From: a virus
Length of the DNA: 64,000 nt
Reading direction: 5' to 3' (one strand)
Virus record (IMG/VR): IMGVR_UViG_3300009788_000106
Coordinates: 1 to 64,000 of that record
This document shows, in pieces, positions 5,689 through 62,688 of the stretch (its first letter is position 1; every line of letters begins with the position of its first letter). The translations under genes were made by a program, and so were the position numbers. The notes beneath the pieces are model-generated. The model was not told the DNA's origin. It made no database searches and was given only the letters and a program-made list of their open reading frames with translations.

Positions 5689-6302
5689 AATTTCAAAGAG
5701 CGGAGCGACCCATTGAAGTGAAGAAGGACGGTGACAGCTACGTCCCGGCAGGCAGGTGCCAGGTGCAGGAGGTACTATACGAAGGCCAAAACATAATGCC
5801 TTTGGTGCTGAGCATTGTTAAGCAGATCCCCATTCCACCAGACATTCGGGTGGACCACGATGCAGTCGTGGCGGAGGCCCTGTTTGGACTGAGCAAAGCA
5901 ATCCCCCTGTTTGATGGCACCCGTGGAGCCAAGTTTAGCACGTTCGCCTTCACCCGGATTCGTGGTGCCATCCTGGACATGATCCAAAGGGAACGCAAGT
6001 ACACGACCCGGTTTCAGCTTGAGCACCCTGCCGACTTCGATCTTCAAGAAAGCACAACGGACTTGGAAGCCGAGATCGATAAGCGCACACTGTTCCTCAA
6101 AGTGTCCAAGGTCCTCGAAGAGCGTGTACCGGTTCTAGAGGCGACTGTGATCATTCGGTCGTTCCTTGAAGGCCGCTCCGATGAGGAGATTGGGGCCGAA
6201 CTTGGGATGGACGAGTTCGACGTCCCCGATATCCGGTCACGGGGTTTGGCCATGGTCCGGGAACACTTCCCGGGCTGTCTCGCGATTATTAACAGGCAGT
6301 AA
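5685..6302 (+). CDS. sigma-70 family RNA polymerase sigma factor (regions 2 and 4)
   Basis: Region 2: DAVVAEALFGLSKAIPLFDGTRGAKFSTFAFTRIRGAILDMI. Region 4-like C-terminus: SDEEIGAELGMDEFDVPDIRSRGLAMVREH. The ATG overlaps the terL stop (ATGA). Confidence 0.7.
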   Translation: MKFQRAERPIEVKKDGDSYVPAGRCQVQEVLYEGQNIMPLVLSIVKQIPIPPDIRVDHDAVVAEALFGLSKAIPLFDGTRGAKFSTFAFTRIRGAILDMIQRERKYTTRFQLEHPADFDLQESTTDLEAEIDKRTLFLKVSKVLEERVPVLEATVIIRSFLEGRSDEEIGAELGMDEFDVPDIRSRGLAMVREHFPGCLAIINRQ

Positions 6303-9668: not shown

Positions 9669-9930
9669 TACTTGCGCCCCGAGCGGTGGCCGGGGTCGTT
9701 CGGTTCCGTGACCGTTAGCACGGCCATGGGGCTGACCCATTCCGCAGCAAACTCCCACAGTGCTTGTTCCTGATCTGGATGGTGCTCGACTATCTCCGCC
9801 ACGGCGTCCATGATGGACGCCATCGGCTTCATCACAGCACTGATGAACTTGTTGCGTGTGGTGAACTCCTTGCCCTTTAACCTCAGTACCCAAGTCCCAC
9901 CGCCATATTGTACCGTGCCTTTGATCATGC
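9665..9930 (-). CDS. hypothetical protein (88 aa) encoded antisense inside the head-gene module
   Basis: ATG preceded by GGGAGAAAAAGC. The protein-like sequence MIKGTVQYGGGTWVLRLKGKEFTTRNKFISAVMKPMASIMDAVAEIVEHHPDQEQALWEF... shares a CTAG overlapping stop with the convergent morphogenesis gene. Confidence 0.4.
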
Positions 9931-10021
9931 TTTTTCTCCCTGTCCCTACGGTACAGCAGCTTGGCAACCCTGTCAAGCCCCTGCCGCCACACCGATAATT
10001 AAACCAGAAGGAGACCGCAGC

Positions 10022-10747
10022 ATGTTCAGAAAACTTATTGCACCGGAAATGGCAAAACTGAAAATCGTCAAGGACGAGGACAACCCGGACTCAGGCGGTG
10101 GCTTCATCGAGGGATACGCCAGCGTTTTCGGCAACCTTGACCATGGCCGGGACATTGTCGAGAAGGGCGCCTTCCGCAAGACTCTGAAGGAGCGAATGCC
10201 GAAGGGGCAAGTTCTCCTGTTCGACTCCCATCGTATCTATGACGGCACGTCTGCCGTGATTGGGAAAGTCGAGGAGGCGAAGGAGGACGACCACGGCCTA
10301 TGGTTCAAGGCCCGGTTCTCTGCGGTCCAGCTTGCGCAGGACATTCGCACCAAGGTTCAGGAAGGCATCCTGGACGCCCTGTCGTTCGGCTTCGATGTGG
10401 TCAAGTACTCCATCGACGAGAACGAGAAGGTGCGCTCCCTGAAGGAGTTGAAGCTGTACGAAATCTCGGTCGTGCCGTGGGGCATGAATCCGAAGGCGCT
10501 GATAGCGGCAGTCAAGGGGCTTAACACGGAGGAGGAAACCCCGTGGTACGAGACCGAACAGTACAAGTCCCTCTTCGTTGAGCCTACTCCCGAAGGTGAA
10601 GGCGAAGGGGAAGGCGCCGGTGCTGGGGAACCTGTGGTCGAGGAACCGACTGCCGCTGAACTGGAGTTGTTTGCCTCAATGAAGGCCGCGGCTCAAGGTA
10701 TGGAATTCGACAAGATGCTTGCGTCGATGAAGGCGCTAACACGGTAA
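10022..10747 (+). CDS. HK97-family prohead protease (peptidase U35) with a Gly/Glu-rich C-terminal segment
   Basis: GYASVFGNLDHGRDIVEKGAFRKTL and GQVLLFDSHR motifs; RBS AAGGAGA; C-terminal EGEGEGEGAGAGE. Confidence 0.8.
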   Translation: MFRKLIAPEMAKLKIVKDEDNPDSGGGFIEGYASVFGNLDHGRDIVEKGAFRKTLKERMPKGQVLLFDSHRIYDGTSAVIGKVEEAKEDDHGLWFKARFSAVQLAQDIRTKVQEGILDALSFGFDVVKYSIDENEKVRSLKELKLYEISVVPWGMNPKALIAAVKGLNTEEETPWYETEQYKSLFVEPTPEGEGEGEGAGAGEPVVEEPTAAELELFASMKAAAQGMEFDKMLASMKALTR

Positions 10748-32099: not shown

Positions 32100-32276
32100 C
32101 TACTTGCTGGCCTGGCCGAGTTTGAAGGCTGCCTGAAGGGCTGCTTCCAAGTTCCAAACCGTCTGGTTGCTGTGGTCCAGCCGATCCGAGTTGCGGGTTT
32201 TGAGGTTCGGCAGTCCGAAGTGGCGGGTGGCGATCTTGTTGATCTGGGTTTTTGTTAGGCCTTTGTTGCTGTCCAT
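32100..32276 (-). CDS. hypothetical small protein (58 aa), leaderless
   Basis: ATG lies 5 nt after the -10 TAGTAT of a class I promoter. Product MDSNKGLTKTQINKIATRHFGLPNLKTRNSDRLDHSNQTVWNLEAALQAAFKLGQASK. Confidence 0.35.
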   Translation of the reverse strand: MDSNKGLTKTQINKIATRHFGLPNLKTRNSDRLDHSNQTVWNLEAALQAAFKLGQASK

Positions 32277-32281
32277 ACCTA

Positions 32282-32310
32282 ATACTACTGCGGTTTTGCC
32301 TGGCCGTCAA
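32282..32310 (-). promoter_or_regulatory. class I promoter TTGACG-N17(GCCAGGCAAAACCGCAG)-TAGTAT, then taggt-ATG
   Basis: Direct reading of the reverse complement. Confidence 0.5.
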
Positions 32311-32371
32311 TAGTTAATTTACCGAAAAGGCAAAATAGTTTGGGACCGGTTGCCCGGCCCCTTGGGATGGT

Positions 32372-32656
32372 CTACCTACTGTTGATCAGATCGAACAAGG
32401 TGGCCGCAGTCCGCACCGCCTTATTGTGTACGTCGACCTGAGCACTGATGGCCCTGGCCCGGCCCTCGAAACCGAATGTGTAGATGGGGTCCTGGTCGTC
32501 GGGGACCGGATCGGAGATGGCGTCGGCCATGCTGTTTAAGTCGAGGGCCAGCTGCTTCATTGCCATCTCAAGTTGGCCGCGGGTCACATTGGCCTTGTCT
32601 CGGCTTCTCTGCCGTGACTCTAGTACTCTCTGGTGTAGTGTGCGGTTGTTTGGCAT
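32372..32656 (-). CDS. hypothetical protein (94 aa), leaderless
   Basis: ATG at 32656 lies 5 nt after the -10-like CACCAT of a class I promoter. Confidence 0.45.
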   Translation of the reverse strand: MPNNRTLHQRVLESRQRSRDKANVTRGQLEMAMKQLALDLNSMADAISDPVPDDQDPIYTFGFEGRARAISAQVDVHNKAVRTAATLFDLINSR

Positions 32657-32661
32657 GTCTC

Positions 32662-32691
32662 ATGGTGCCACGGTTTTGCCTCGGTTGTCAA
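32662..32691 (-). promoter_or_regulatory. class I promoter TTGACA-N18(ACCGAGGCAAAACCGTGG)-CACCAT, then gagac-ATG
   Basis: Direct reading of the reverse complement. Upstream on the minus strand is a hairpin plus U-tract terminator (32692-32740) serving the preceding gene. Confidence 0.45.
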
Positions 32692-32748
32692 GCACCAAGG
32701 CAAAAAAATAGGGGCCGGTGTTCCGACCCCCCATGGTTCACCAGTGGG

Positions 32749-32970
32749 TTACTGGTTCGCCTTGTACTCCAATACGTCGTCCCAGGCGGCGTTTACGGTG
32801 TCAAACTGATCCCAGTACTCAATACCGTCGGAGTGTTCCGCCTCGGCAATGTACTCACGTACAATCTGGGTCATACCATACCGTCGCCCCAAAAGTTGTA
32901 ACTTACCTTTCAGTACCTCCCGGTCAATCCGGTTGTCCATTTCATTTGAGTTGTTAATGTTTTGTACCAT
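32749..32970 (-). CDS. hypothetical protein (73 aa)
   Basis: ATG at 32970. A degenerate class-I-like element (CGGCAAAACCGTGG-TATCCT-taatt-ATG) lies upstream. Confidence 0.4.
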   Translation of the reverse strand: MVQNINNSNEMDNRIDREVLKGKLQLLGRRYGMTQIVREYIAEAEHSDGIEYWDQFDTVNAAWDDVLEYKANQ

Positions 32971-33118
32971 AATTAAGGATACCACGGTTTTGCCGATTTG
33001 TACCTTTTATTTTGCCGAAAACGCAAAATAGTTTGGCCCTAAAAATGTAGCCTTCCCCGACGGCAAACCGGTCAAACCTGCGTACTATGGAACATAGCAC
33101 GCAAGGTGGTGGAAACCT

Positions 33119-34969: not shown

Positions 34970-34991
34970 TTTTGTTTTTGCCCCGTACCAT
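34970..34991 (+). promoter_or_regulatory. class II motif TTTTGTTTTTGCCCCGTACCAT
   Basis: One of 5 copies of TTTGCCCCGTAC(C/T)AT, all on the plus strand upstream of genes. Confidence 0.35.
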
Positions 34992-35079
34992 GTTCGTGAA
35001 GGACAAGAAAACCAAACTTGACAGCACAAATTCAACGCGGTAGCTTAGGGAAGTCACCTCACGGGAAAGGGGAACAGGA

Positions 35080-39028: not shown

Positions 39029-39601
39029 ATGGCAACGGCACAACCGATCATTGAAATCAACAAAGTCACCATGGACCGGCTGGCCGGTATGGTCTACAAG
39101 ATATGTGGGGAGGCGTACCAGCAAATGCCGGAGTGCCACAAACGCTGGATCGACCTGGGAGACTTGGTCTCTGAGGCCTGGATCAAGGTGTACCGCAAAT
39201 GGCACCTGCATGACCCGACCCGCGGCAAGGACTCCACTTTCGTGTTCACCGTGGTCCGCAACACAATGCGTGATAGGCTGAAGCAGCTGCGGGTATACAC
39301 ACGGTTTTGTCACGTCGTCAGTCTTGAGGAAGACTCCATCAAAGAACCCGAACGGATTGACGCTGGCTCGGCAGAACAGTCGGAGGCAGAGGATCGTGTC
39401 GGTAAGTTCCTGGGACTGGCTTCCCCAGCCCTTCGCACATTCATGCAAGTCCATTTCTTCCAGCGGCAACCTGGCCGGCCAAACTTTAACAAGTTCCTGC
39501 CGGAGGTCCTCCGCCTCCGTCGGCTAACCGGCTGTTCGGTCCAGGACTTCATGCTGTGCGCAGGCGGAGAGGTGAACGGGGCAAATGCCAAAAGAGTATA
39601 G
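39029..39601 (+). CDS. ECF-like sigma factor (region 2 clearly present)
   Basis: DLVSEAWIKVYRKWHLHDPTRGKDSTFVFTVVRNTMRDRLKQ matches sigma-70 regions 2.1-2.4. Region 4 is less clear. Confidence 0.5.
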   Translation: MATAQPIIEINKVTMDRLAGMVYKICGEAYQQMPECHKRWIDLGDLVSEAWIKVYRKWHLHDPTRGKDSTFVFTVVRNTMRDRLKQLRVYTRFCHVVSLEEDSIKEPERIDAGSAEQSEAEDRVGKFLGLASPALRTFMQVHFFQRQPGRPNFNKFLPEVLRLRRLTGCSVQDFMLCAGGEVNGANAKRV

Positions 39602-40169: not shown

Positions 40170-41133
40170 CGGCAGCGACTGGAAAGGTCCACAGCCCGAC
40201 GACACGTACCCGGTCATTTACTTCTCCGGCTTCCGGCACTACGCCGATGAGGGTATCAGGGAGAAGGAAATTTTCGAGCAAACCAAATGGGATGCCCGGT
40301 GCTTGTCCTACGCCTACTGTGGTGAGGGCTCCGACCTGTACATGAAGATCGCGGCTGAGACCCTCGCCTACTGCCAGGAGAATGACATTCGCATCCTGCT
40401 GGACTCAGGTGCCTTCTCATTCCGGGATACCCTTGCCAGCGACGACCTCGACTTGGTGGACCGGTTCGCAACCACTTACGCCAAGTGGATCAAGACCCGG
40501 CGCCAGGCCTTCGACTTCTACGTCAACCTCGACTACGTGCGCAACGCCTCCGCCTGCTGGAAGATGCAAATGCTTCTGGAGCGTAAAGGCCTCAGGCCGG
40601 TCCCGGTGTTCCATGGTGACAGTTCGATGGACTGGATGCGGAAGTACATCGACCGGGGGCACAAGTTGATTGGCCTTGGTACGCTTGGGTCCGGCTGGTC
40701 CACAGGCGTGAAGTACAAGTTCTACGACCGGTGTTTCAACCTGGCAGAACAGCATGGCGTCTACCTTCATGGCTTCGCCGTCACCGGTTCCAGTATGTTC
40801 CGGTTCCCATGGCACTCGGTGGACTCGGCAAGCTGGCTGAAGGCCGCTGTCTTCGGTGCCATCATCCTTTGCGATCCGTTCAGGGAGCAGGTTACAACAT
40901 GGAAGATTAGCGACCAGCCCACCAAGCGATCCGGCCACCAGCCGGGCGTAATCCAACGGCTGGAAGGTACCGCCCGGGAAGCTGTGATTGAGAAGCTGGA
41001 GGCGCAAGGCTACACATGGGACAGGCTGACTACCTCATCGTGGGAGCGTTCCCGGTTCAACATTCAGCAGTTCCGAGACGCCGTGGCAACGCGCGCCCGC
41101 CCGGTTTACAAAGGCACATGTGACTTGATTTGA
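40135..41133 (+). CDS. dpdA: DpdA-like 7-deazaguanine DNA transglycosylase (queuine tRNA-ribosyltransferase superfamily)
   Basis: ILLDSGAFSF motif and TIM-barrel-like length, immediately upstream of folE. Alternative ATG at 40111. Confidence 0.55.
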   Translation: MTNKATSKSTTNGSDWKGPQPDDTYPVIYFSGFRHYADEGIREKEIFEQTKWDARCLSYAYCGEGSDLYMKIAAETLAYCQENDIRILLDSGAFSFRDTLASDDLDLVDRFATTYAKWIKTRRQAFDFYVNLDYVRNASACWKMQMLLERKGLRPVPVFHGDSSMDWMRKYIDRGHKLIGLGTLGSGWSTGVKYKFYDRCFNLAEQHGVYLHGFAVTGSSMFRFPWHSVDSASWLKAAVFGAIILCDPFREQVTTWKISDQPTKRSGHQPGVIQRLEGTAREAVIEKLEAQGYTWDRLTTSSWERSRFNIQQFRDAVATRARPVYKGTCDLI

Positions 41134-41149
41134 CTTTGCCCCGTACTAT
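41121..41149 (+). promoter_or_regulatory. class II motif TGACTTGATTTGACTTTGCCCCGTACTAT
   Basis: Sequence read directly, 16 nt upstream of the folE ATG. Confidence 0.35.
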
Positions 41150-41165
41150 ACACCAAGGAGATCAA

Positions 41166-42817: not shown

Positions 42818-45499
42818 ATGGTACAGTTTCTTGACCTTCTCGACGGAGGCAAAAAAGAGCTAGGCAAACAAGGGCGGCAGGTCTCCCAAAAGTGGAAGAC
42901 CGGAGGCGGTTGTATCGCCTGCCCATTGGACAGCGCAGACAGACCCAAAATCATCGGTACTGATCGTATCGAGGGTAGACCCGGAATGGTCTGGTCGCTG
43001 ACGCCAGGACGGCCAGAAGTAGAAGAGGGACTAGAACTGGTCGGCCCCAATGGGCGTATGCTATGGGAAGAGATCGAGGCCGCAGGCGGGTCGCGAGACT
43101 TGTTTGACACTCACCACATAGTATGCTGCCGCCCCACAACCCGAGTCGGGGCCACGGTCAAGAACAGGAACCCAAAGGATGTAGAACTTGAAGCGTGCTC
43201 CCACCACACGCGGCGGGCTGTTGGTGCGTCTGGCGGCGCTGCTTCAGTCTACCTGCTGCTTGGGGACAAGGTGGCCGATGCCGTGCTCGGCAAGCAACGC
43301 AAGAAGACAAAGCCGGTACAGTGGTCTAACAAGTACCAAGCTACAATGTTCTCTATTGATCACCCCGCCACGTTCACCCGTGGCGGATATCCTGAGTGGC
43401 GGTTAGAGGAGTGGCGTGAAAAGCTGAAGGCCGCGGTCTGGCTGGCAAAGCATCCCGGTCGCTGGGCGTTCCTGGAGACTGCAGACTTCAAGTATGTGTC
43501 CAAGGTCTCTAGCACGGCAAAGCTGATGGCCAAGCTCAGGCGGTTCGCAGCCAAGGGCCACCGCATTGCTGTTGATATAGAGGACTCGCCTAAGTATGGC
43601 CTGTTGAACGTGGGGTTCTCGTGGGCGCGGGGCAAGGCCCGAACCGTCATCCTATACCATCCAGAGAACCCGAACCCACAGGAGGCCGATGGCTGCTTGT
43701 CGCTGATCAAGGACTTCCTAGAGGACCCCGAGATCGAAAAGTCCTTCCACTGGGGAAGCTCCGACGTCAAGGGCCTCCGTGCCGAAGGCATCAAGGTCCG
43801 CGGGTACACCGGGGACACACACTACAGCAACTTCCTGCGCCGGACATACATGAAGTCGAACGGCCTCGAAGCGATCAGTGACAAGCTGTACCCGCTCTAT
43901 GCCGGGTACAAAGAATACATCAAGCCATACCTCAAGTCACCGATCGACTACGGTGACATCCCGCTGCAGCAGATCGCAAAGTACAACTGCGCCGACGCGG
44001 CCCTGACCTATGAGATCGACGCCGACACCACGCCCCATGTGAACCAGGACTTGTTGAAGGTATACGTCTGGGCCGGCATGACTTTGGATGGCATGCAATC
44101 ACGTGGGCCATGCTTGGATGAACGGTATATGAAGGCCGTGCGCAGGATCGTGCCACCAGCCATTGAGAAGAGCTTAAACGAACTGAGGTTGTTTGCCGAC
44201 AAACCGGCCTTCCGCTGTACGACTGAGGAAGTGGATGATCTACTATTCCGCAAGCTGAAACTAAAGAGGCCTGATGACAGCAAGGGCACGGACAAGAAGG
44301 TCCTCGAACGTATGCAACACGAGACGCCGCACCGGGCTGTGGACCTTGTCCTTGACTGGCGTATGTACAGCAAGATGCAGTCCACCTACATCGACGGGTA
44401 CGCAGAGTCCGCCCGGATACATGGCGGGCAACTCCGAACCAAGTGGGCGCTCGCTGGTGCCGTTACAGGCCGGCTCAGGAGTGGTGGCGGCAAACGGAAT
44501 CCCGGGTTTGTCAACATGCAGAACCTGCACGGCAAGCCCTTCCTTAAGAACTTGCTGGTGAGCGACCCCGACTGGTACCGGGTGCTCGACTGGAAGGGCG
44601 GTGCCATCCCAGAGGAGATCAAGGACCTTGACCTATTCATGGCATACGATTACAGCCAGGTCGAGATCAGGTTTCTTGCCATGGTCGCTCAGGACGAGCT
44701 GCTCATTAAACAGTTCATGCATGCGGCAACACAGGACGAGGGCGACCCAGCCAGTGACATACACTGCATTGTAGGCCACAGCATTAACCCGGAGTGGAGT
44801 CTAGAGTTCATCAAGTCCGACAAGGACACCCGCACGTTCATCAAGAACTGTCACTTCGGCTTGGTCTACGGGCTGTCCGAAGGTGGCCTGTACAACTACC
44901 TCAAAGTCAAAGGCATTAAGAAGACCGAGGAAGAGTCACGCGAGTTCCATCGCGGGTACTTCCGCACGTATAAGGGCGTCGGGCGGTACATCAAGTACAT
45001 GCGCAAGTTCGCCCTCGAACACGGGTACGTCGACACCATCTTTGGATTCCGCAGAGCCATTGGGGATGCCGCCGATGAGGAGCGCAACACGAACCCAGAG
45101 AACCAAGCAGTCAATTCGCCTATCCAAGGGGCCGCGCACCAGATGATCCTAAACGCAATGGCCCTACTACACCGCAAGCCAAAGACGTTCAACTTGCTGC
45201 GCAACCCCATTATGGAAGTCCATGATGCGCTGGTGTTCCGCACCAAGGTCCGGGACATGCAGGAGTGTTTCAAGCAGGGCAAGTACCTCATGGAGACCGC
45301 GGTCCCAGAGTTCACCCATAAGACCTTCGGGCGTAAGTTGGAAGTGCCCCTTGCGGCAGAGGCAGAGGCCGGCTTCCGATATGCCACTATGGTCGGGGAC
45401 TACCGTGGCACCAGCACTGACAAGTTCCTGCGGGACTGGCTCAAGTACAACATGAAGGTGGATGCCGACGTGCGTGACGAGTTCGGGCTTGCAGCTTGA
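42818..45499 (+). CDS. polA: family A DNA polymerase with an N-terminal uracil-DNA-glycosylase family-4-like domain
   Basis: Pol motifs DYSQVEIRFLA (A), RTFIKNCHFGLVYG (B) and VHDALVF (C). N-terminal GCIACPLD...GRPGMVW...VGPNGRMLWE...HHIVCCRP...SIDHPATFTRGG resembles UDG family 4. Confidence 0.8.
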   Translation: MVQFLDLLDGGKKELGKQGRQVSQKWKTGGGCIACPLDSADRPKIIGTDRIEGRPGMVWSLTPGRPEVEEGLELVGPNGRMLWEEIEAAGGSRDLFDTHHIVCCRPTTRVGATVKNRNPKDVELEACSHHTRRAVGASGGAASVYLLLGDKVADAVLGKQRKKTKPVQWSNKYQATMFSIDHPATFTRGGYPEWRLEEWREKLKAAVWLAKHPGRWAFLETADFKYVSKVSSTAKLMAKLRRFAAKGHRIAVDIEDSPKYGLLNVGFSWARGKARTVILYHPENPNPQEADGCLSLIKDFLEDPEIEKSFHWGSSDVKGLRAEGIKVRGYTGDTHYSNFLRRTYMKSNGLEAISDKLYPLYAGYKEYIKPYLKSPIDYGDIPLQQIAKYNCADAALTYEIDADTTPHVNQDLLKVYVWAGMTLDGMQSRGPCLDERYMKAVRRIVPPAIEKSLNELRLFADKPAFRCTTEEVDDLLFRKLKLKRPDDSKGTDKKVLERMQHETPHRAVDLVLDWRMYSKMQSTYIDGYAESARIHGGQLRTKWALAGAVTGRLRSGGGKRNPGFVNMQNLHGKPFLKNLLVSDPDWYRVLDWKGGAIPEEIKDLDLFMAYDYSQVEIRFLAMVAQDELLIKQFMHAATQDEGDPASDIHCIVGHSINPEWSLEFIKSDKDTRTFIKNCHFGLVYGLSEGGLYNYLKVKGIKKTEEESREFHRGYFRTYKGVGRYIKYMRKFALEHGYVDTIFGFRRAIGDAADEERNTNPENQAVNSPIQGAAHQMILNAMALLHRKPKTFNLLRNPIMEVHDALVFRTKVRDMQECFKQGKYLMETAVPEFTHKTFGRKLEVPLAAEAEAGFRYATMVGDYRGTSTDKFLRDWLKYNMKVDADVRDEFGLAA

Positions 45500-45515
45500 T
45501 TATGCCCCGTATAAT
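45495..45515 (+). promoter_or_regulatory. class II motif CTTGATTATGCCCCGTATAAT overlapping the polA stop
   Basis: Sequence read directly. Confidence 0.35.
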
Positions 45516-46046: not shown

Positions 46047-47246
46047 ATGGCGACAAAAAAACGCAAGACGAAACAGCCGGCGTGGAAGGAAGACGCCCGG
46101 CGCAAGGTTAAGGAACGGTCACAAGGTGGCCGGTTCAAGCTGGTCGAGGGCGACAACATCATTCGCATTCTACCGAACAAGCAGGGCACCAACGAAGCCC
46201 CGTTCCTTGAGTTCCAAGCTCATGGCGACGTCGGCAAGGACAGGAAGTTCCTCACATGTGGCAAGTCCCATGGCGGCAAGTCCTGCTACATTTGCAAAAA
46301 GATCAGCTCTCTCGAACGCAGCGGTAAGGGGGCCAATGTCAAGAAGGCCGCAGCCATGGCAATCAAAGAACAGATGGTCCTACAAGTGGCCGTCGTGGAT
46401 GAGGACACCGGGCGCTGGCGTGGTCCCTACACTTGGTACCTGTCGCTTGGGGGCTCGAAGGCTCTGTCTTCAGCCGTCCTTCGTCTGATCACCACGAAAC
46501 GCCGCAACTACGACCACCCGGTCGAGGGCTTCAACCTTGCGATCAACCGCACCGGCGCCGGCCTCGACACTCGGTATGGTCCGCCCGAACCGGACATGGA
46601 TTCCAGTGAAGTCCCCGAAGACATCCTGGACAAGCTCAAGGAACTCGAAGAAGTGGCCGGCAAGTACGATGCCTCTGCCTGCGAATCCGCCTACACTGGT
46701 CGCGAGATTGCGGCTGATGATGATGAGGATGAGGACGCCGACGAGGAGGACTCGGTCGATGAGGATGAGGAGGATGGCGACGACTCCGATGACTCCGATG
46801 AGGACGAGGAAGAGGAGGAAGCCCCGCCGCCCAAGAAGACCAAAAAGAAGGCGCCGGTAAAGCGCAAGGCCAAGCCTGCACCCGTCGAGGATGAGGAGGA
46901 CGAGGACGAGGATGACGACGATGAGGATGAGGCTCCTCCGCCGCCAAAGAAAAAGCCCCGCAAGAAGGCCAAGCCGGCTCCCGTCGAGGACGAGGATGAA
47001 GACGAGGACGAGGACGAGGATGAGGACGAGGACGAGGACGAGGATGACCCGCCTCCGCCACCAAAGAAAAAGACCCGCAAGCGCAAGCCGGCTCCCGTCG
47101 AGGAAGACGAGGACGAGGACGAGGACGACGACGACCCCGATGATGACGATGAGGACGACGACCCCGATGATGACGATGAGGACGAGGAAGACGACCCGCC
47201 TCCGCCACCGCCTAAGAAGCGCAGGAAGGTGAAGCGCAAGAGTTAG
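46047..47246 (+). CDS. putative zinc-binding ssDNA-binding protein (gp32-like) with a long acidic repeat tail punctuated by KKxKPAPVE modules
   Basis: CGKSHGGKSCYICKK Cys/His cluster in an N-terminal domain of about 200 aa. The C-terminus is about 200 aa of D/E runs with 4 copies of PPPKK..K(K/R)KAKPAPVE. The gene sits between polA and a RecA-like gene. Confidence 0.4.
   Translation: MATKKRKTKQPAWKEDARRKVKERSQGGRFKLVEGDNIIRILPNKQGTNEAPFLEFQAHGDVGKDRKFLTCGKSHGGKSCYICKKISSLERSGKGANVKKAAAMAIKEQMVLQVAVVDEDTGRWRGPYTWYLSLGGSKALSSAVLRLITTKRRNYDHPVEGFNLAINRTGAGLDTRYGPPEPDMDSSEVPEDILDKLKELEEVAGKYDASACESAYTGREIAADDDEDEDADEEDSVDEDEEDGDDSDDSDEDEEEEEAPPPKKTKKKAPVKRKAKPAPVEDEEDEDEDDDDEDEAPPPPKKKPRKKAKPAPVEDEDEDEDEDEDEDEDEDEDDPPPPPKKKTRKRKPAPVEEDEDEDEDDDDPDDDDEDDDPDDDDEDEEDDPPPPPPKKRRKVKRKS
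46690..47235 (+). repeat. low-complexity GAG/GAC (Asp/Glu) coding repeats with periodic K-rich modules
   Basis: Runs of gaggacgag interrupted by 4 copies of cc(g/t)cc(g/a)cc(a/c)aagaa..aagcc(t/g)gc(a/t)cccgtcgag. Confidence 0.6.
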
Positions 47247-48689: not shown

Positions 48690-49694
48690 ATGCAGGAAGT
48701 TCTTGCAAAGGCAGCACGACCAAAGCGGTTATCCAGACTACTAGGGCAGAAGTCCCTAGTAGGGGCCATACGGAAACGGATTGACAGCGGACGCATTCCG
48801 AAGGCATGGTTGTTCTCCGGGGAGACAGGCGCCGGGAAGACTACCATCGCCCGCATCATCGCATTGTCCTTTCAAATGGTCACGGGTGACTTCGGCGAAC
48901 CCGGACCTGACATGTGGTCTGAGTACGAGGGGTTCGACATTCGGGAGATCAACGCATCGGACATTAACGGCGTGGACGACATGCGCCAGCTTGCCCGGGA
49001 CGCTGCCTTCATGCCCCAGCCAGGTTCCCTCAAGAAAATCATCATCTTGGATGAGGCACACCGCCTCACCGCAGCGGCCCAGAACTGCCTGCTGAAACCG
49101 TTCGAGGACACGGCAAAGGACACCGTCTGGATTGTATGTACCACCGAACCCGGCAAGATCATCAAGACTCTTCGGGGCCGGTGCGCTCAGTTCGAAATGA
49201 AGGGCTTAAGGTCTGGTGGTATCAAGATGCTGCTCAAGCGGGCGGCAAAGGCCGTGGCCTACTCGGGTGAGTTAGACACGCTGGTGGATGTCCTGGATGA
49301 GCAGGGCGTGTCCAGCCCGCGGGTCATCCTCGGCATTTTCGAGCACTTCATTGCTGGCGGGGACGCAAATCAAGCTGTACTAGTCGGCGGCAATGAGGTT
49401 GACGGGTACGCATTCTCAAAGCTGGTCTGGGCGCGTGAGTGGGCCGAAGTTGCCCCGGTACTGAAGGAGGCCACTGCGGAGCAAATGCGGAACCTGAGGT
49501 TCTCAGTGGTGGGTTACCTGCGTGCCATACTGCTAAGCACGAACAACAACGCAAAGACTCGCGTGATGGCCGCTGGCGCGATCGACCGGCTCAGTGTGTT
49601 CCCGCCGCCTGAGGACGGCATGTTCCGGGCGTGGTTCCCATCGCAGGTGTACCAGAGCATCCGGTTCATGGCTGGTACGGCGGCCAAAAAGTGA
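48690..49694 (+). CDS. AAA+ clamp loader subunit (DnaX/RFC-like)
   Basis: GETGAGKTTIARIIA (Walker A), IIILDEAHRLT (Walker B), TLRGRCAQF (sensor / SRC-like). Confidence 0.7.
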   Translation: MQEVLAKAARPKRLSRLLGQKSLVGAIRKRIDSGRIPKAWLFSGETGAGKTTIARIIALSFQMVTGDFGEPGPDMWSEYEGFDIREINASDINGVDDMRQLARDAAFMPQPGSLKKIIILDEAHRLTAAAQNCLLKPFEDTAKDTVWIVCTTEPGKIIKTLRGRCAQFEMKGLRSGGIKMLLKRAAKAVAYSGELDTLVDVLDEQGVSSPRVILGIFEHFIAGGDANQAVLVGGNEVDGYAFSKLVWAREWAEVAPVLKEATAEQMRNLRFSVVGYLRAILLSTNNNAKTRVMAAGAIDRLSVFPPPEDGMFRAWFPSQVYQSIRFMAGTAAKK

Positions 49695-52456
49695 AGCCCG
49701 GTCTCCTGTTCACTGGAGACTGGCAAATGTCCTGGAGCAACCTGGCTCAAGTCGAGCAGGCGGTCAAGGACATTCTAACCATTCACCAGACCAAGCGGAA
49801 GCTAGAGGCGGTAGTTCACCTTGGTGACGTCAAGCACATTCTGAACCCTGTGGACCAGCGCGTGTCAAACAAGGCCATCGAGATCGTCAAACGGTTCAAG
49901 GGCCTCGGCATCCGGTTCCTAGTTCTCCTTGGCAATCACGACCGGCTCAGCATGTCCGATGAGTCTCAGGACTGGTTCCCTACCCTGGCAGCAGCCGGGG
50001 CCGAGACCTTCACAGACCCCGACGTCATCCACATCTCTGAGAACGACGTTCGGTTGTTTATGTTGCCATTCCGTCGTGACAAAGCTGCACTCAAGGTGAC
50101 CGCTGCTGAGTTCGGTTCCCTGGCCGACCCGTCAAATGGCATCCTGTGCTTTCATGAGGACGTGTCTGGTGCCAAGTACGATCGACAACGGGGCATCGAG
50201 TCCGGACTGTCACGCAAGGCCCTACACATGGACAAGTACATGTTTGCCGTCGGTGGGCACGTACACTTCCGCCAGAAGATCGGGCCGAACGGCTGGTACG
50301 CTGGCAGCCCCTTTGCGATGGATTGGGGCGAGTGCAACCAGCGCAAGGGATACTTGCTGTACTCTGAAGGGCGTATGTACCGCCTTAGCAGCAGCCTTCC
50401 GGGCTGGTACGACCCAAGTGTCGCCGGGTTCGACAAAGTGGCACCAGCGTCGTTCAAAGGCGCACGGGTCCGTATCAGGGTCAACTACCGCAAGGAGGAC
50501 CCCAACTATCAGCAGAAGCTGGACACCGCCCAGCGGTCGGCCTCGGAGAAGTACCCGGATGCCGAGATCGTTCTCGACCCGCGGCAACTCAAAACCGAGG
50601 TCGAGTCCATTGCAGCCGAAGGGGATGACGGGGACATCATTAAAGCGTTTCTGAAGGCAAACACTCCTAAGCCCTTGCGCGGCCAGGAAGGGGCCCTGCT
50701 GGCCTACTTGACTAACCGACTGGAGTTGACTGGTAAGTCACTGCGCAGGCAAGGTGCCATAGACATCACTCGCGTGGTGGGCCGGAACGCCATGTCGTTC
50801 GAGACCGTGGAAGTGCCAATGCAACCCGGCATCACAGTGGTCACCGGCAAGAACCTCGACTGGGATGGCCGGTCCAACGGGTCCGGGAAGACCTCCTTGC
50901 TCCACTTGATCCCGATTGCGCTAGAGGGGAAGACCCTGAAGGGGCAGAAGCACGATGGATGGGTTCGTGAAGGCAGCACCGGGCCGGCCACGGTAGGCCT
51001 CGAAATGAGGTTGCCCGACGGGTCAACCTTCGAAGTATATAGGCAGCGCCGCCCCACGCGGTTGACTGTGATGCACAATGGTCAGGACATTTCGACCGGC
51101 ATGGGGCAAGCCGACACCCAAAAACGAATCCAGGAACTAACCGGCATGACTTGGGACATCTTGACGAATGCGGTATTTATCGACCAGCTACAGGTGAACG
51201 CTCTGCTACATGGGACGCCCACCGACCGCAAGAAGCTGCTTGCTCAGTTCCTAAACATTGAACGGTTCGAGGACGCGCAACAGGTTATCCGCAATGAGAT
51301 CCGCTCCGCGCAACGGTTCATGGAAGAATGGGATGAAGAAGTCGAAGCATCCCAGGTGGAGATAAGGCGTTACAGGGAGTTCATTAAGGACTTGGTGCTA
51401 CCAGACACCAAGGCGCTGCGCACGCAACTGGCGGGCCTCAAACGGGCGGCAAAGACCCAACAGGAGAACGTCGACCAGTGGCAACAGTACCTTGACGACT
51501 TGCCACCACAGCCGAACCCGGATGACGTGCGAAACTACACGACATCAGTCGGTCGTGTGGCTGGCAGGATTTTTGCCCTTGAGGACCAGATCTCTGAAGC
51601 TGAGGGCCAGCCCGACAAGTGCCCGACGTGTGGACAGAAGCTAAACCAAGTCAAGGTCCCACCACAGGCAAAGGCAAAGGCCGAACTCAAGAAGTGGAGA
51701 GTGACGCACAAGCAACTAAAGGGCGAGCTTGCCAAGGCGCAGCAGGAGAAGGAGGAGTGGGCCGACGACAGGCGGGAGGCCCTGATCAATCTCACAGCGG
51801 CACGGGCAAGGCTCCGAACCACCAAAGCCGAGCAGGCAGCGCCCCTGGCCCTACTGGCAGCAGCAGAGCAGGTTGAGACCAAGCGATCCAAGTACCAGAG
51901 CCTCAAGCGGGTGAACATGGCAAACCTTAAAATCTTCAAGCAAGGCGTCGTGGACATGGGACTAGAGGTCGAGTTCCTCAAGTTCGCGGCAGAGGCCTTT
52001 TCGCGGAACGGTGTGCCGGCATTCATCATGGCCGAGCTATGCCCCCGCCTCACCGCAGCTGCTGACTACTATTCGGACCTGTTCTCCGACGGGGAAATCA
52101 CGGCCACCTTTGCCATGGACAAGTCCGACATCGACGTCCAGATTATCAACCAACATGGCGGCCCCAAGATCGAGGACCAGTCTCGCGGCGAGACCAAAAT
52201 GGCTTCCCTGATCCTGTCCTTCGCCCTGCGGGACGTGACTAACCCGTGCAACATTCTGATCGCTGACGAACCCGGCGACGGGCTGGACGAAGTGAACGCC
52301 CGCCAGTTTGCCCGAGGCCTCAAGAAAGTCAAGCAAAGGTTCCCGGTCATACTGGTATGTACTCATGACCCACACATCCTTGCCGAGTTGTCCGGTGAAC
52401 GGCAAGCGACAATTATTAAGCAGAACGGAGTATCAGAGGTCACATATGGCAGCTAA
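49691..52456 (+). CDS. fused SbcD(Mre11)-SbcC(Rad50) nuclease/ATPase in one polypeptide
   Basis: N-terminal metallophosphatase motifs (LLFTGDWQ, HLGDVKH, LLGNHDR, GGHVH), then ABC ATPase Walker A GRSNGSGKTSL, coiled coil with zinc hook CPTCGQ, and C-terminal ILIADEPGDGLDE (Walker B / D-loop). GTG at 49691 overlaps the upstream stop. Confidence 0.65.
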   Translation: MKPGLLFTGDWQMSWSNLAQVEQAVKDILTIHQTKRKLEAVVHLGDVKHILNPVDQRVSNKAIEIVKRFKGLGIRFLVLLGNHDRLSMSDESQDWFPTLAAAGAETFTDPDVIHISENDVRLFMLPFRRDKAALKVTAAEFGSLADPSNGILCFHEDVSGAKYDRQRGIESGLSRKALHMDKYMFAVGGHVHFRQKIGPNGWYAGSPFAMDWGECNQRKGYLLYSEGRMYRLSSSLPGWYDPSVAGFDKVAPASFKGARVRIRVNYRKEDPNYQQKLDTAQRSASEKYPDAEIVLDPRQLKTEVESIAAEGDDGDIIKAFLKANTPKPLRGQEGALLAYLTNRLELTGKSLRRQGAIDITRVVGRNAMSFETVEVPMQPGITVVTGKNLDWDGRSNGSGKTSLLHLIPIALEGKTLKGQKHDGWVREGSTGPATVGLEMRLPDGSTFEVYRQRRPTRLTVMHNGQDISTGMGQADTQKRIQELTGMTWDILTNAVFIDQLQVNALLHGTPTDRKKLLAQFLNIERFEDAQQVIRNEIRSAQRFMEEWDEEVEASQVEIRRYREFIKDLVLPDTKALRTQLAGLKRAAKTQQENVDQWQQYLDDLPPQPNPDDVRNYTTSVGRVAGRIFALEDQISEAEGQPDKCPTCGQKLNQVKVPPQAKAKAELKKWRVTHKQLKGELAKAQQEKEEWADDRREALINLTAARARLRTTKAEQAAPLALLAAAEQVETKRSKYQSLKRVNMANLKIFKQGVVDMGLEVEFLKFAAEAFSRNGVPAFIMAELCPRLTAAADYYSDLFSDGEITATFAMDKSDIDVQIINQHGGPKIEDQSRGETKMASLILSFALRDVTNPCNILIADEPGDGLDEVNARQFARGLKKVKQRFPVILVCTHDPHILAELSGERQATIIKQNGVSEVTYGS

Positions 52457-53686: not shown

Positions 53687-53703
53687 GTTTTGCCCCGTAC
53701 CAT
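53686..53703 (+). promoter_or_regulatory. class II motif AGTTTTGCCCCGTACCAT, 5 nt upstream of the queD ATG
   Basis: Sequence read directly. Confidence 0.35.
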
Positions 53704-55082: not shown

Positions 55083-55096
55083 TCGCAAATGAGTGC

Positions 55097-55125
55097 TTGA
55101 CGTCTCGGCAAAACCGTGTCACTAT
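55097..55125 (+). promoter_or_regulatory. class I promoter TTGACG-N17(TCTCGGCAAAACCGTGT)-CACTAT
   Basis: Sequence read directly, upstream of the vWA gene. Confidence 0.45.
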
Positions 55126-56261: not shown

Positions 56262-56280
56262 AGCTCAGGCAAAATAGTAG

Positions 56281-56309
56281 TTGACATTTGCCGGTTTGCC
56301 TGGCACTAT
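56281..56309 (+). promoter_or_regulatory. class I promoter TTGACA-N17(TTTGCCGGTTTGCCTGG)-CACTAT
   Basis: Identical over about 45 nt to the copy at 60233. Confidence 0.5.
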
Positions 56310-56325
56310 TGGTTAGAGGTTAAAA

Positions 56326-57399
56326 ATGAAAAAGTCGCAAATCAGAAAGCTCATCCCGAAGGTACCGGACCTAAGACGGGCGCACAAGGCACTCATCACC
56401 GCCGACGTGACCGACAGGGTCATCGCCCTCCGCACGGTCATGGATTGGTTTGATGTGTATACCACCTTGGTTCGATCTCAGGTCATCGCCGCAGGCGGGC
56501 AACGCAAACTGGACCTGGCAGCTAAGATCAAACCTCTGGCAGCGCGGCACGACACTCCGGCATTCGAGGCCGAGACCGCACTGATTCAGGCTATCCGCAT
56601 GTTGGAGTCGGCGCTGGCACCAGCGGTCCCTACCCTCAAGCTACCTCGGATCAATGACGCATGGGCCGAGTACGAATCAAAGAAGATTGCGCTGGAGCAC
56701 AAGGCAGCGAAGGCCATAGTAAAGTTTGCTGCTCTCAAGGCCGGGCTGGACCAGTTCTTCAAACCCTTGGGACTAACCTTTAAGTTTAGCAAGGACCTTC
56801 CCAAGCCCCGGCAGTTCGACGCCACTGGCCGCGTCCTGTACTCCTTCGACTACGCTGGCACCTTGGTGCAAGAGCTCAAGGCCAATGGCTTGGACTCGGT
56901 CCTCATGGGCCAAGCCCCGGCAATCCTCAAGGCGGCTTCGCTTTCAGTCAGCAACGGCAAGCTCTTAATCTCAATGGCCAAGCTCATGGACTTGTTACCG
57001 GGCCTGCTGGTTTCCATCTACGGGCTGGGGGCAAGTAGCAAGAGCACGTCAACGCCCGCTACGGCGCCTCCGGCAACGCCTAAGGCCACACCGACACCGA
57101 ACCCGACCCCAACGACGCCGAAGCCCCCGAAGGCCACACCAGCCCCGCCGATAGGTGGACTGAGTCCTGAGGCTGCCAAGTACTTCCGGGCTGGCACGCA
57201 ACAGCTTTTGTTCGACCGCCTCATCAAGGTAGCAGGCGGGCGCATTTCCATGGCCGACTTGTACGACGGCCTGAGCGCGGGCGACCCCCGCCGCATGATC
57301 CTCAGCATCCACCAGAAGGGCGTGAAGCTCGGACTGTGGGAGGCAAACCGCTACGGCAAAATGGTACACTTTGATTGGACAGGAGGACCGCACGTATGA
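56326..57399 (+). CDS. hypothetical protein with a Pro/Thr-rich linker
   Basis: ORF with RBS GAGGT; a TPATAPPATPKATPTPNPTPTTPKPPKATPAPP linker separates two domains. Confidence 0.45.
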   Translation: MKKSQIRKLIPKVPDLRRAHKALITADVTDRVIALRTVMDWFDVYTTLVRSQVIAAGGQRKLDLAAKIKPLAARHDTPAFEAETALIQAIRMLESALAPAVPTLKLPRINDAWAEYESKKIALEHKAAKAIVKFAALKAGLDQFFKPLGLTFKFSKDLPKPRQFDATGRVLYSFDYAGTLVQELKANGLDSVLMGQAPAILKAASLSVSNGKLLISMAKLMDLLPGLLVSIYGLGASSKSTSTPATAPPATPKATPTPNPTPTTPKPPKATPAPPIGGLSPEAAKYFRAGTQQLLFDRLIKVAGGRISMADLYDGLSAGDPRRMILSIHQKGVKLGLWEANRYGKMVHFDWTGGPHV

Positions 57400-58301
57400 A
57401 AATGTCCGCTGCCGAAATTGCCAAGCTACCCAAAGGTGTCTTGGCAACCGAGAGGTGTGACAGTCAAAGATGCGGCAAGCCGCTGATTGGCCTGCTCATC
57501 TGGCGTTCAAAGGACAGGGCTCACGCCTACTGTTCAAACGCCTGTTTTGAAGAATCCGAACCAGCAAGATCGAGCGGTGGCGAACCCACCAAAAAAGGAG
57601 ACAAAACCATGATTAGCAAAGGCAAGAAACGCAACAAGAAGGCCGCCGCCGCACCCGAGGTGGATGAGGAAGAGGACATGATGGAAGAGGAGGAAATGGA
57701 GGACGAGGACGAGACCCCAGCACCGAAGCAGAAGGCCAAAAAGAAACGCAAGTCGAAGCCGGCCCCGGTCGAGGAGGACGAGGACGAGGACCCGGAGGAC
57801 GAGGAGGACGAGGACGAGGACGAGGAGGACGACCCGGAGGACGACCCGGAGGACGACCCGGAGGACGACCCGGAGGACGACCCGGAGGACGACCCGGAGG
57901 ACGGCGACGACTCCGATGAGGAGGACCCGGAGGATGAGGAGGACCCGGAGGAAGAGACCGTGCCGGTCAAGGTCAAGAAGCCACGGGGCAACCGGGTCAA
58001 ACCTGGCAACCCGACCAAGAAGGTCACCGCCAAGGAACGCAAGGCGAACCTCAAGGCCATGAAGGGCAAGACCAGTCCGTTCCGCGCCGGGACTCGGTGT
58101 GACATGCTGTTTCGGAAGCTGGCCTCGGGCAAACGGTTCAAAAGCATGGATACCCTTGTCAAGGGGATCGACCCGCCGCCCGGAGATCCGCAGCGTATGG
58201 TCAGTATGATCCGCGCCAAGGGTCTTGAGAATGGCCTGTACACCATCGTGAACGACGCTGGTTCCTGGCAGATGACCGAGAACCACTTGGCAACTGACTA
58301 G
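57396..58301 (+). CDS. Cys-cluster protein with a highly acidic repeat core (6x DDPE) and a basic C-terminal domain
   Basis: N-terminus CDSQRCGKP...HAYCSNAC; a KKRKSKPAPVEEDEDED module as in the 46047 product; 12-nt repeat gacgacccggag x6 at about 57829-57900. Confidence 0.45.
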   Translation: MKMSAAEIAKLPKGVLATERCDSQRCGKPLIGLLIWRSKDRAHAYCSNACFEESEPARSSGGEPTKKGDKTMISKGKKRNKKAAAAPEVDEEEDMMEEEEMEDEDETPAPKQKAKKKRKSKPAPVEEDEDEDPEDEEDEDEDEEDDPEDDPEDDPEDDPEDDPEDDPEDGDDSDEEDPEDEEDPEEETVPVKVKKPRGNRVKPGNPTKKVTAKERKANLKAMKGKTSPFRAGTRCDMLFRKLASGKRFKSMDTLVKGIDPPPGDPQRMVSMIRAKGLENGLYTIVNDAGSWQMTENHLATD

Positions 58302-59775: not shown

Positions 59776-60229
59776 GCAACTACTCACGATTGAAGTTGAG
59801 ACCCCGGATGGCTACCCTCAGGAGTCTCTAACCGCAGACATTGAAGGCCACCTTAAACGCCAGGTCCAACAGCTATGCGAGTTCCAAGCAAGGCGTATCG
59901 GTATGTGTGGGGTCGTGGCCGACTCCGAGACCCCGCCGACATTCCGGCTGGTGGTCGAGGAGCAGTGTGCCTTGGTGCCAGTGACCCGCACGCAGGAACT
60001 CATAAGCCGCTGGGCCATTGACGAGCTGAAGGCAACCGGCACACCGGAGACCCTGCCACTGGTCGAGAATAGCCTACTCATGATGCCGCTTCGCTGGGTG
60101 TGCCAGGCCAAGCTATTCATCGCCCTGATCGAGACGTACCCGGTGCTGAAGAAGCAGCCGGACTGGGTGCGCACGGCAATGACCCTGGCGGGGAAGGTTC
60201 AAACACAGTTCGGTCTCACGGCAAAATAG
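59765..60229 (+). CDS. hypothetical protein (154 aa)
   Basis: ATG at 59765 within the ORF 59663..60229. Confidence 0.4.
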   Translation: MPIKQLLTIEVETPDGYPQESLTADIEGHLKRQVQQLCEFQARRIGMCGVVADSETPPTFRLVVEEQCALVPVTRTQELISRWAIDELKATGTPETLPLVENSLLMMPLRWVCQAKLFIALIETYPVLKKQPDWVRTAMTLAGKVQTQFGLTAK

Positions 60230-60232
60230 TAG

Positions 60233-60261
60233 TTGACATTTGCCGGTTTGCCTGGCACTAT
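60233..60261 (+). promoter_or_regulatory. class I promoter TTGACA-N17(TTTGCCGGTTTGCCTGG)-CACTAT, followed by hairpin GGGAGGcaaaaacaaCCTCCC (60268-60288)
   Basis: Sequence read directly; duplicate of the 56281 copy, including the upstream GGCAAAATAGTAG. Confidence 0.5.
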
Positions 60262-60315
60262 TGGTTTGGGAGGCAAAAACAACCTCCCAGCCGCAAGGCA
60301 AGAAAGGTTAATATC

Positions 60316-62009: not shown

Positions 62010-62024
62010 TCAGCAAATCAGGGC

Positions 62025-62053
62025 TTGACAGCCAGGCAAAACAGGAGTAACCT
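62025..62053 (+). promoter_or_regulatory. class I promoter TTGACA-N17(GCCAGGCAAAACAGGAG)-TAACCT, then tagtc-ATG (leaderless)
   Basis: Sequence read directly. Same tagtcATG junction as the minus-strand copy at 3772. Confidence 0.45.
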
Positions 62054-62058
62054 TAGTC

Positions 62059-62364
62059 ATGGTCAACAACAGCAACTTCACAATCGAAATCAAAGATGAT
62101 ACCGAACTCGGCATGGCCGTGGTTTTGGTGGACATAGACGAGGCCCCTGGCATCGACGCAACAAGCGAGGTCGTCGGCGTGGTGGGGACTCTGAATGAAG
62201 CCGAACAAGTGATCGGCGACGACTACTTGGCTCGCGTCACCGGTTGCAACGACACCCAGAAGGACGCACCGAGCCAGTATCGGGTGCAAGCAAGAGGCCG
62301 CGGCGGCGAGTACTTTGACCTGCTGACTTGGTCCAGCGAACGGTGCTACGCCGAGTGCATGTAA
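62059..62364 (+). CDS. hypothetical protein (101 aa), leaderless
   Basis: ATG 5 nt after the -10. Confidence 0.4.
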   Translation: MVNNSNFTIEIKDDTELGMAVVLVDIDEAPGIDATSEVVGVVGTLNEAEQVIGDDYLARVTGCNDTQKDAPSQYRVQARGRGGEYFDLLTWSSERCYAECM

Positions 62365-62373
62365 AGGAGATCG

Positions 62374-62688
62374 ATGCCGAAACAAGAACTGAAACTGAAG
62401 CACCCCGAGCGCCTATGGGTGCTGTCTGTTGAATACACCGAAGGTGGTGGCTCTGAGGTCTGGTGGCCAGTCAACAACCCGCCATGGAGACTGTACGAGG
62501 CAGGGGAAGAGTTCGAGATCACCTTTGCCCGCTCCGTTGACGGCAAGGTGGTGCTTATGGAACTGAGGGATGAGCAGGGCCGGCATGCGGGCTGGGACGT
62601 TGACAAGTGCCCCGCCGAACGCTCGGATTCGGACGACTTGTTTGAGCTTTGCCCCGTACCATGTAACAAACCGGAGACCACCGCATGA
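62374..62688 (+). CDS. hypothetical protein (104 aa)
   Basis: RBS AAAGGAGATCG. Its 3' end contains a class II motif (62647-62662). Confidence 0.4.
   Translation: MPKQELKLKHPERLWVLSVEYTEGGGSEVWWPVNNPPWRLYEAGEEFEITFARSVDGKVVLMELRDEQGRHAGWDVDKCPAERSDSDDLFELCPVPCNKPETTA
62647..62662 (+). promoter_or_regulatory. class II motif CTTTGCCCCGTACCAT
   Basis: Sequence read directly. Confidence 0.35.

Follow-up and report, generated by a model that had tools for sequence, protein, structure and literature searches.

A probable -35-independent, single-element promoter family ahead of replication and modification genes in an uncultivated siphovirus-like phage

Background

The element described here is a 13-base motif (TGCCCCGTAYNAT, hereafter class II) that occurs five times in a 64,000-nucleotide stretch of phage DNA, namely positions 1 to 64,000 of IMG/VR record IMGVR_UViG_3300009788_000106 (hereafter the window), and it can be compared with several described promoter systems. 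The T4 late promoters (TATAAATA) are A+T-rich elements of 8 bp that are read by gp55 and need gp33 and the sliding clamp activator. Extended -10 sigma-70 promoters (TGnTATAAT) work without a -35 box through extra contacts just upstream of the hexamer, and sigma-28 (FliA/SigD/WhiG) promoters have the form TAAA-N15-GCCGATAA. The gp36 protein of phage phiEco32, a sigma without region 4 homology, reads the single element tAATGTAtA and starts transcription 6-8 bp downstream, with no -35 box (PMC8948821). In Deinococcus-Thermus, TANNNT located about 6-7 bp upstream of the open reading frame (ORF) was experimentally identified as the -10 region of leaderless genes (PMC12340547), and leaderless-gene promoters with TANNNT near the ORF are also described in Actinobacteria (PMC4633059).

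Judged from its sequence and placement, class II is quite probably a promoter. We suggest, with good but not full confidence, that its features are best explained by a -35-independent, single-element middle promoter, probably dependent on a phage factor, that serves replication and modification genes. The closest documented analogue is phiEco32, which likewise combines a single -10-centred element lacking a -35 box, present in few copies before non-early gene blocks, with a small divergent sigma that shows no region 4 by Pfam. However, the two sequences are unrelated, the class II block reaches about -20 and is G+C-rich, several leaderless transcripts are predicted, two sigma genes are present and the dependence on a sigma is putative. 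Like the T4 late promoters, class II would be a -10-only promoter of the kind recognised by a small phage sigma-like protein (the feature of gp55), but it precedes replication and modification genes and nothing ties it to late genes. It differs from extended -10 promoters because there is no TG at -15/-14: the conserved block is TGCCCCG, with its TG at about -19/-20. With leaderless-gene promoters it shares a hexamer 5-6 nucleotides (nt) before the ATG and no Shine-Dalgarno sequence (SD), as seen at queD, two genes of a related contig and six promoters of a second family (class I, see below), whereas these known promoters are host housekeeping elements with no long conserved extension and most genes of this phage do have an SD. 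Finally, sigma-28 promoters resemble class II in their long G+C-rich -10 (GCCG, then an A/T-rich part), and one phage sigma is WhiG/FliA-like, which we treat as a lead only; class II has no TAAA at the right spacing and the -10 likeness is loose (GCCCCGTAYNAT against GCCGATAA).

Results and discussion

Distribution of the class II motif

The initial annotation had reported a motif family with five plus-strand copies upstream of replication and modification genes, and all five are indeed present where they were described, with the same positions relative to genes. The family is best written as TGCCCCGTAYNAT, which has five matches on the plus strand of the window (starting at 34979, 41137, 45503, 53691 and 62650) and none on the minus strand; the exact 15-mer TTTGCCCCGTACYAT is found at four sites (34977, 41135, 53689 and 62648). 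When the 15-mer given in that annotation is searched with at most two mismatches, five matches are obtained against 0.11 expected from dinucleotide shuffles, and none of 100 shuffles gets to five. The fifth of these matches is an unrelated weak one at 4118 and not the 45503 copy (TTATGCCCCGTATAAT), which has three mismatches to that 15-mer. A weight matrix built from nine sites gives the five copies scores of 30.9-37.0 bits, the runner-up over both strands (128 kb) reaching 16.8 bits. This runner-up (4118-4132, GTTTGCGCCGTTCCATG, plus strand) lies over the start codon of a leftward gene at 4132 and is probably a chance match. Another contig extends the sequence by 4.1 kb past the end of the window, and no further class II copy was found there.

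The five copies are co-directional with the genes and four of them end 5-22 nt before a start codon. Copy 1 (TTTGCCCCGTACCAT, 34977-34991, hexamer 34986-34991, 36.8 bits) is intergenic, after the gene of a UvsW-like helicase, and in tandem with a sigma-70-like promoter 26 nt downstream (TTGACA-N17-TAGCTT, 35018-35046, plus strand, read from the sequence), which is followed by an operon encoding p190, a DnaB-like helicase, a primase, a 5'-3' exonuclease, a sigma factor resembling the extracytoplasmic function (ECF) group and a DpdA-like protein. Copy 2 (TTTGCCCCGTACTAT, 41135-41149, hexamer 41144-41149, 37.0 bits) begins 2 nt past the dpdA-like stop codon, and its end stands 16 nt ahead of the folE ATG (41166). 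Copy 3 (TGCCCCGTATAAT, 45503-45515, hexamer 45510-45515, 30.9 bits) begins 4 nt past the stop codon of polA, with its end 16 nt from the ATG of the next gene (45532, p169), which is followed by the genes of a gp32-like single-stranded DNA-binding protein (SSB), a RecA-like protein, a clamp loader and an SbcCD-like protein. Copy 4 (TTTGCCCCGTACCAT, 53689-53703, hexamer 53698-53703) stands 5 nt before the queD ATG (53709), which has no usable SD. Copy 5 (TTTGCCCCGTACCAT, 62648-62662, hexamer 62657-62662, 33.4 bits) is located within the 3' end of ORF 62374-62688 and ends 22 nt before the ATG at 62685. All copies being at gene starts, a DNA-modification target or a packaging site was set aside. 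Between 30 and 64 kb, neither canonical sigma-70 promoters nor plus-strand terminators are enriched.

Conservation in related phages

Among GenBank phages there is no close relative by DNA. GenBank proteins give distant matches only (at most 28% identity for PolA, and 41% for the capsid protein to Rhizobium phage RHph_X2_25, whose replication module is not syntenic with that of the window). Conservation is described here from a sister lineage at about 75% nucleotide identity, which comprises L044, a contig of IMG/VR, and L173-L175, three contigs from metagenomes. The motif is kept at all three comparable positions in L044 and also found in L173: copy 1 corresponds to L044 670, copy 2 to L044 6834 and L173 3078, and copy 3 to L044 11394 (TGCCCCGTACAAT). 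Over the three orthologous sites, 37 of the 39 positions of the 13-mer are identical, both changes falling at hexamer positions 3-4, and the upstream flanks and the leader diverge while the 13-mer stays; a binomial estimate for at least 37 of 39 at a background identity of 75% is about 1e-3. The sigma-70-like promoter at 35018 is also retained in L044 (TTGACA-N17-TAGTTT). Copy 1 contains an ATG (in TACCATG) from which a short ORF could start, but the length of this ORF is not kept in L044 and it was discarded.

The post-polA site differs between the two lineages in its leader, which in the window is 16 nt long and contains an SD and in L044 is replaced by 6 nt, leaderless, with an identical ATG and no SD. 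L044 also carries an additional gene of 60 amino acids (483-665) with its own class II copy in front, the fourth copy of this contig. At L044 11166-11413, a small inserted ORF separates polA from the class II promoter, and its last nine codons (VRDEFGMGA*) duplicate the polA C-terminus; this duplication implies that about 35 nt upstream of the motif were retained together with the promoter.

More distant syntenic relatives, with PolA 45-48% identical (L176, L177, L178 and L180), have CGTATAAC, CGTATAAT or CGTACTAT after polA; the forms include CGTATAAY, and in two of the four the element stands 6 nt ahead of the ATG. The L176 lineage has its own repeat (GGCGTATAAC, with GTCGTATAAC at the fourth site), in four copies upstream of genes. 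In the L178/L184 lineage the order is a T-tract, GCCC (once GCCT), 3-4 nt, GTATATT or GTATCAT, 5-6 nt and the ATG. From these post-polA elements, the promoter position and the -10 core appear to be old and the G+C-rich extension to be lineage-specific. Wider searches added little: scanning a viral collection for the exact motif (43 loci) gave a single, chance-like match per locus save for one true relative, the same scan of a genome collection (at least 120 loci) gave single chance-like matches and was uninformative, and a metagenome scan using PolA gave no match.

A -10 hexamer without a -35 box

The last six bases of the motif are TAYNAT. The hexamers of the window (TACCAT in three copies, TACTAT and TATAAT) all fit TAnnnT, those of L044 are TACCAT and TACAAT, and the A at position 2 and T at position 6 expected of a TATAAT-like -10 hexamer are therefore present throughout. 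This good -10 hexamer in the 3' half had been overlooked in the initial annotation, which had emphasised instead a TTG(A/T)TT or TTGACT element before each copy, at a spacing too short for a standard sigma-70 arrangement. Such an element does exist in four of the five copies, at a variable distance, but is lacking at 53691, and in L044 it is found at two of four sites (absent at L044 465 and 670). The TTGAYT element, where present, is just 8 nt upstream of the hexamer. Its exact form occurs only at the dpdA/folE and polA/p169 junctions (41130-41135 and 45496-45501) and their orthologues, where the TGA that stops the preceding gene (dpdA-like or polA) is part of it; the partial 3' duplication of polA in L044 retains this stop for the inserted ORF. 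Since several copies lack TTGAYT or have it in degenerate form, and since it serves at the same time as a stop codon, it provides no evidence for a short-spacer bipartite promoter and we do not retain it as a component of the signal.

A true -35 box was sought at sigma-70, ECF and sigma-28 spacings, and neither an alignment of 10 sites nor inspection revealed a conserved column near -35. No TTGACA-like hexamer lies 16-18 nt upstream of the -10, and a sigma-70 consensus scan reported none of the five sites. CCG always precedes the hexamer, the TG standing 5 nt further upstream than in extended -10 promoters. The CGT of ECF (group 4) promoters is present (CCCCGTA), without the AAC-core -35 element 16-17 nt upstream or any other conserved one. 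The sigma-28 form is matched in part of its -10 only. A sigma-54 reading (GG at -24, GC at -12) was rejected, there being no GG 12 nt upstream of the GC. Promoters of T7-like single-subunit RNA polymerases (about 20 bp, ending at +1) would require such a polymerase to be encoded, and no RNA polymerase domain was found by Pfam and PHROGs among the scanned ORFs of the window and of the 4.1 kb beyond it, a small part of the genome being unsampled. By contrast with these promoter types, class II has the features of a single-element system: one -10 element with no -35, several copies on the coding strand upstream of gene blocks and, in the same genome, divergent sigma-family proteins (two genes). 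The earlier view of a non-random, gene-proximal and co-directional signal that is not a standard -35/-10 sigma-70 promoter is thus supported.

Leaderless geometry and the class I promoters

At queD the layout is TACCAT-agggc-ATG with no SD. The Pfam PTPS domain alignment of the product begins at residue 3, so that 53709 is the true queD start, and independent gene calls pick the identical ATG. Two L044 genes have a similar layout without an SD, TACCAT-agatc-ATG at 483 and TACAAT-aactca-ATG at 11413. With the ATG 5-6 nt past the hexamer and no SD, these three genes imply leaderless mRNAs. The most economical reading would be that transcription starts 6-7 nt past the class II hexamer. The queD mRNA is then predicted to be leaderless, starting at A53709, and leaders of about 10-17 nt are predicted for folE, the 45532 gene and the 62685 gene; for copy 2, the predicted start (about 41155-41156) is at the 5' edge of an AGGAG ribosome-binding site.

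The initial annotation had also considered that the motif might act in RNA, as a processing or antitermination site, to which a translational operator in long polycistronic transcripts can be added. The motif is indeed on the coding strand near start codons, as translational operators are, and in the absence of plus-strand terminators between units read-through transcripts would include it. However, folding z-scores range from -0.40 to +0.75, with neither a shared nor an unusually stable structure, and there is no Rfam match at the gathering threshold. Moreover, three genes have an ATG 5-6 nt past the motif without an SD, an arrangement that requires the RNA to have its 5' end there; the motif also ends in a canonical -10 hexamer, and promoters with a clear -35 box show an equal spacing to the ATG. 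We consequently regard a role in RNA as very improbable, a transcription start being the better fit.

The promoters with a -35 box form the class I family, which is sigma-70-like and consists of TTGAC(A/G), a conserved 17-nt spacer (GCCAGGCAAAACCGYGG) and TAnnnT or CACYAT. Class I sites are located at 3772-3815, 4132-4175, 32276-32320, 32656-32700 and 32970-33016 on the minus strand and at 55090-55125 and 62020-62061 on the plus strand. Six of them have the ATG exactly 5 nt after the hexamer (genes at 3772, 4132, 32276, 32656 and 32970 on the minus strand and at 62059 on the plus strand), which implies leaderless genes here too; five of the six have a clear -35 box, that of 32970 being weaker, and independent gene calls, where available, use these ATGs.

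The conserved class I spacer suggests an operator overlapping the core promoter, and its conservation also speaks for a further explanation of class II. Here a DNA-binding protein of the phage, either a repressor or an activator that makes up for the -35 contact, would bind the conserved block beside a plain -10 hexamer, and TTTGCC would be the GGCAAAA/TTTTGCC box that recurs in class I promoter regions. GGCAAAA, which may be the binding box of a putative regulator, occurs 35 times in the window against 10.5 expected (none of 100 shuffles gets to 35) and is concentrated in promoter regions, for example at 3814, 32329, 32699, 33010, 55107/55139/55154 and 63534/63550, often as inverted pairs (TTTTGCCT ... 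AGGCAAAA) on either side of the -35 box. A 47-nt identical repeat (ggcaaaatagtagTTGACAtttgccggtttgcctggCACTATtggtt), found upstream of two genes at 56268-56314 and 60220-60266, is a promoter whose spacer contains two direct TTTGCC boxes. TGCCGGTTTGCCTGGCA in this repeat can form a small hairpin, and the TTTGCC-TGG-CACTAT of the repeat is laid out like the TTTGCC-CCG-TACCAT of class II. Against a regulator site, the T-rich part is not retained in the L044 lineage (CTCTGCCCCG, TTCTGCCCCG) and only TGCCCCG is invariant, so that the shared box dissolves. No candidate regulator gene was identified, and -13 to -20 would be an unusual position for an activator. This explanation therefore seems improbable to us, although less so than a role in RNA.

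Two looser elements complete the picture. The initial annotation had related to the family a cgTACCATGT element that follows a palindrome upstream of the terminase gene. The element itself is real (4191-4227, plus strand): a perfect 9-bp inverted repeat (4191-4199/4204-4212) that contains TTGACT is followed by CGTACCATGT, with the hexamer TACCAT at 4220-4225, about 70 nt upstream of the terL ATG (4297). Its relatedness is limited to the -10 part of the motif, since it has no TGCCCC and scores less than 12 bits, below the matrix threshold; it is a possible related late promoter. Similarly, CGTACTAT is found 30 nt before the ATG of the UvsW-like gene. The factor that reads class II may also read both of these, as looser members of the family.

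Candidate sigma factors and model

The "two phage sigmas" that had been put forward as possible readers of the motif are both encoded. The first (39029-39601, plus strand, 190 amino acids) is ECF/SigH-like: Pfam finds region 2 only (Sigma70_r2, E-value 7e-11) and its closest PDB matches are SigH and ECF sigmas, while an AlphaFold model (pLDDT, the predicted confidence score, of 47) was too poor to use. Its gene belongs to the operon of the 35018 promoter and closely precedes the first internal class II copy, and orthologues are found at the matching position after the 5'-3' exonuclease gene in L173, L176, L178 and L180. The second (5685-6302, plus strand, 205 amino acids) matches Sigma70_r2 (E-value 3e-10) and, weakly, region 4; among PDB structures it comes closest to those of WhiG/FliA, and it is encoded between terL and the portal gene, an order repeated in L184 and L185. 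The positions of both sigma genes are kept in relatives at only about 46-60% protein identity.

If class II is a promoter, the ECF-like sigma is the leading candidate to read it, with a chance that we put somewhat short of even; host sigma-A, with or without an activator, is distinctly less likely in this role and the FliA-like sigma less likely still. From the features described above we infer the start sites, the timing and the identity of the sigma in the following model. TAYNAT would be the -10 hexamer, with the start 6-7 nt downstream, and the invariant TGCCCCG just upstream (about -13 to -19/-20) would be a specificity extension standing in for the -35 box. Host sigma-A would first transcribe the operon from 35018-35046, including the gene of the ECF-like sigma, which would then bring the polymerase core of the host to the class II sites, used as middle promoters. 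Copy 1 would be among them; as it precedes the operon of the sigma itself, it would provide positive feedback, and its leader would be longer than the short ones predicted at copies 2, 3 and 5. The five copies would in this way break up the rightward module of replication and 7-deazaguanine-modification genes into separate transcription units. The most specific form of the model, in which the ECF-like sigma recognises the single 13-bp element TGCCCCGTAYNAT without a -35 contact, launches leaderless or near-leaderless mRNAs and makes up, together with the FliA/WhiG-like sigma of the late operon, a cascade of two sigmas in a siphovirus-like phage of roughly 68 kb, is a tentative proposal that we think rather unlikely to hold in full.

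The strongest competitor is that class II sites are ordinary host sigma-A promoters with a strong, -35-independent -10, TGCCCCG then being due either to upstream contacts particular to the host or to a promoter cassette that was copied recently. TAYNAT makes a good hexamer for sigma-A, the G that precedes it is shared by class II, most class I promoters and the site at 35041 (which suggests one -10 reader), the distance from hexamer to ATG is equal in class I and class II, and distant relatives retain only (C)GTAnnAY. On the other hand, there is no TGn at -15/-14, the TG being about 5 nt too far upstream, and seven bases that are invariant over about 25% nucleotide divergence go beyond the needs of a generic -10. 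The class I promoters of the same phage do have a clear TTGACR -35 box, and no target motif would be obvious for the two phage sigma genes. We consider this alternative unlikely, though well ahead of the regulator and RNA explanations.

Returning to the phage-factor-dependent, single-element promoter that we prefer, several points weigh against it. The promoter case rests wholly on sequence. The exact motif is carried by two lineages only, and orthologues of copies 4 and 5 were not retrieved, searches based on QueD and p300 giving unrelated phages or nothing. Class II sites have no -35 element, on which ECF-type sigmas normally depend. Finally, TAYNAT with its preceding G resembles the -10 of the phage's own sigma-70-like class I promoters, so that host sigma-A could read class II alone or with an activator.

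Genome context

The window is phage DNA of 57.6% G+C. A siphovirus-like structural module (TerL, portal, capsid, tape measure) extends from about 4.3 kb, and the rightward replication and 7-deazaguanine-modification module from 33 kb onward. The latter encodes a UvsW-like helicase, a DnaB-like helicase, a primase, a 5'-3' exonuclease and a sigma-family protein; a DpdA-like protein, FolE, a sliding clamp, a uracil-DNA glycosylase (UDG)-PolA fusion, a gp32-like SSB and a RecA-like protein; and a clamp loader, an SbcCD-like protein, a PDDEXK nuclease, QueD, QueE and a vWA protein. A scan for tRNA genes, made toward host identification, found none. The window starts within a ThyX gene (1-464), and the contig that continues past its end (L169) carries at 8310-10358 an ORF of more than 683 amino acids with no significant Pfam or PHROG match, which together imply a genome larger than 68 kb that is partly unseen.

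The polA gene (42818-45499) encodes a uracil-DNA-glycosylase-family domain (PF03167) fused to a family A polymerase, a fusion common to all relatives at 45-48% identity or more. The SbcCD-like gene (49631-52456) is a single ORF of 941 amino acids with an N-terminal Metallophos domain (SbcD/Mre11-like) and SMC_N/AAA_23 (SbcC/Rad50-like); it is conserved in relatives and appears to be a nuclease-ATPase fusion. Long GAG/GAC/GAT-rich repeats at 46700-47200 and 57690-57950 encode Asp/Glu-rich tails broken by Lys/Pro-rich stretches, in the gp32-like protein and in a protein of 308 amino acids (57375-58301), and these regions cross-match in BLAST.

Conclusions

Phage-specific promoter classes read by phage sigmas are well established, and the advance is incremental unless the recognition mode of the sigma proves unusual. 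To our knowledge, group-4-like sigmas are strictly dependent on bipartite promoters; if the ECF-like sigma does read a single element, its mode of recognition would be new. The pairing of a hitherto undescribed promoter consensus with two uncharacterised phage sigmas would offer a compact system for -35-less recognition and leaderless expression. Annotation also gains from the motif, which points to start codons right after the hexamer and to small inserted genes that carry their own promoter copy. For an uncultivated phage lineage without a GenBank relative, the motif provides a working transcription map, with five probable internal promoters and their predicted starts.

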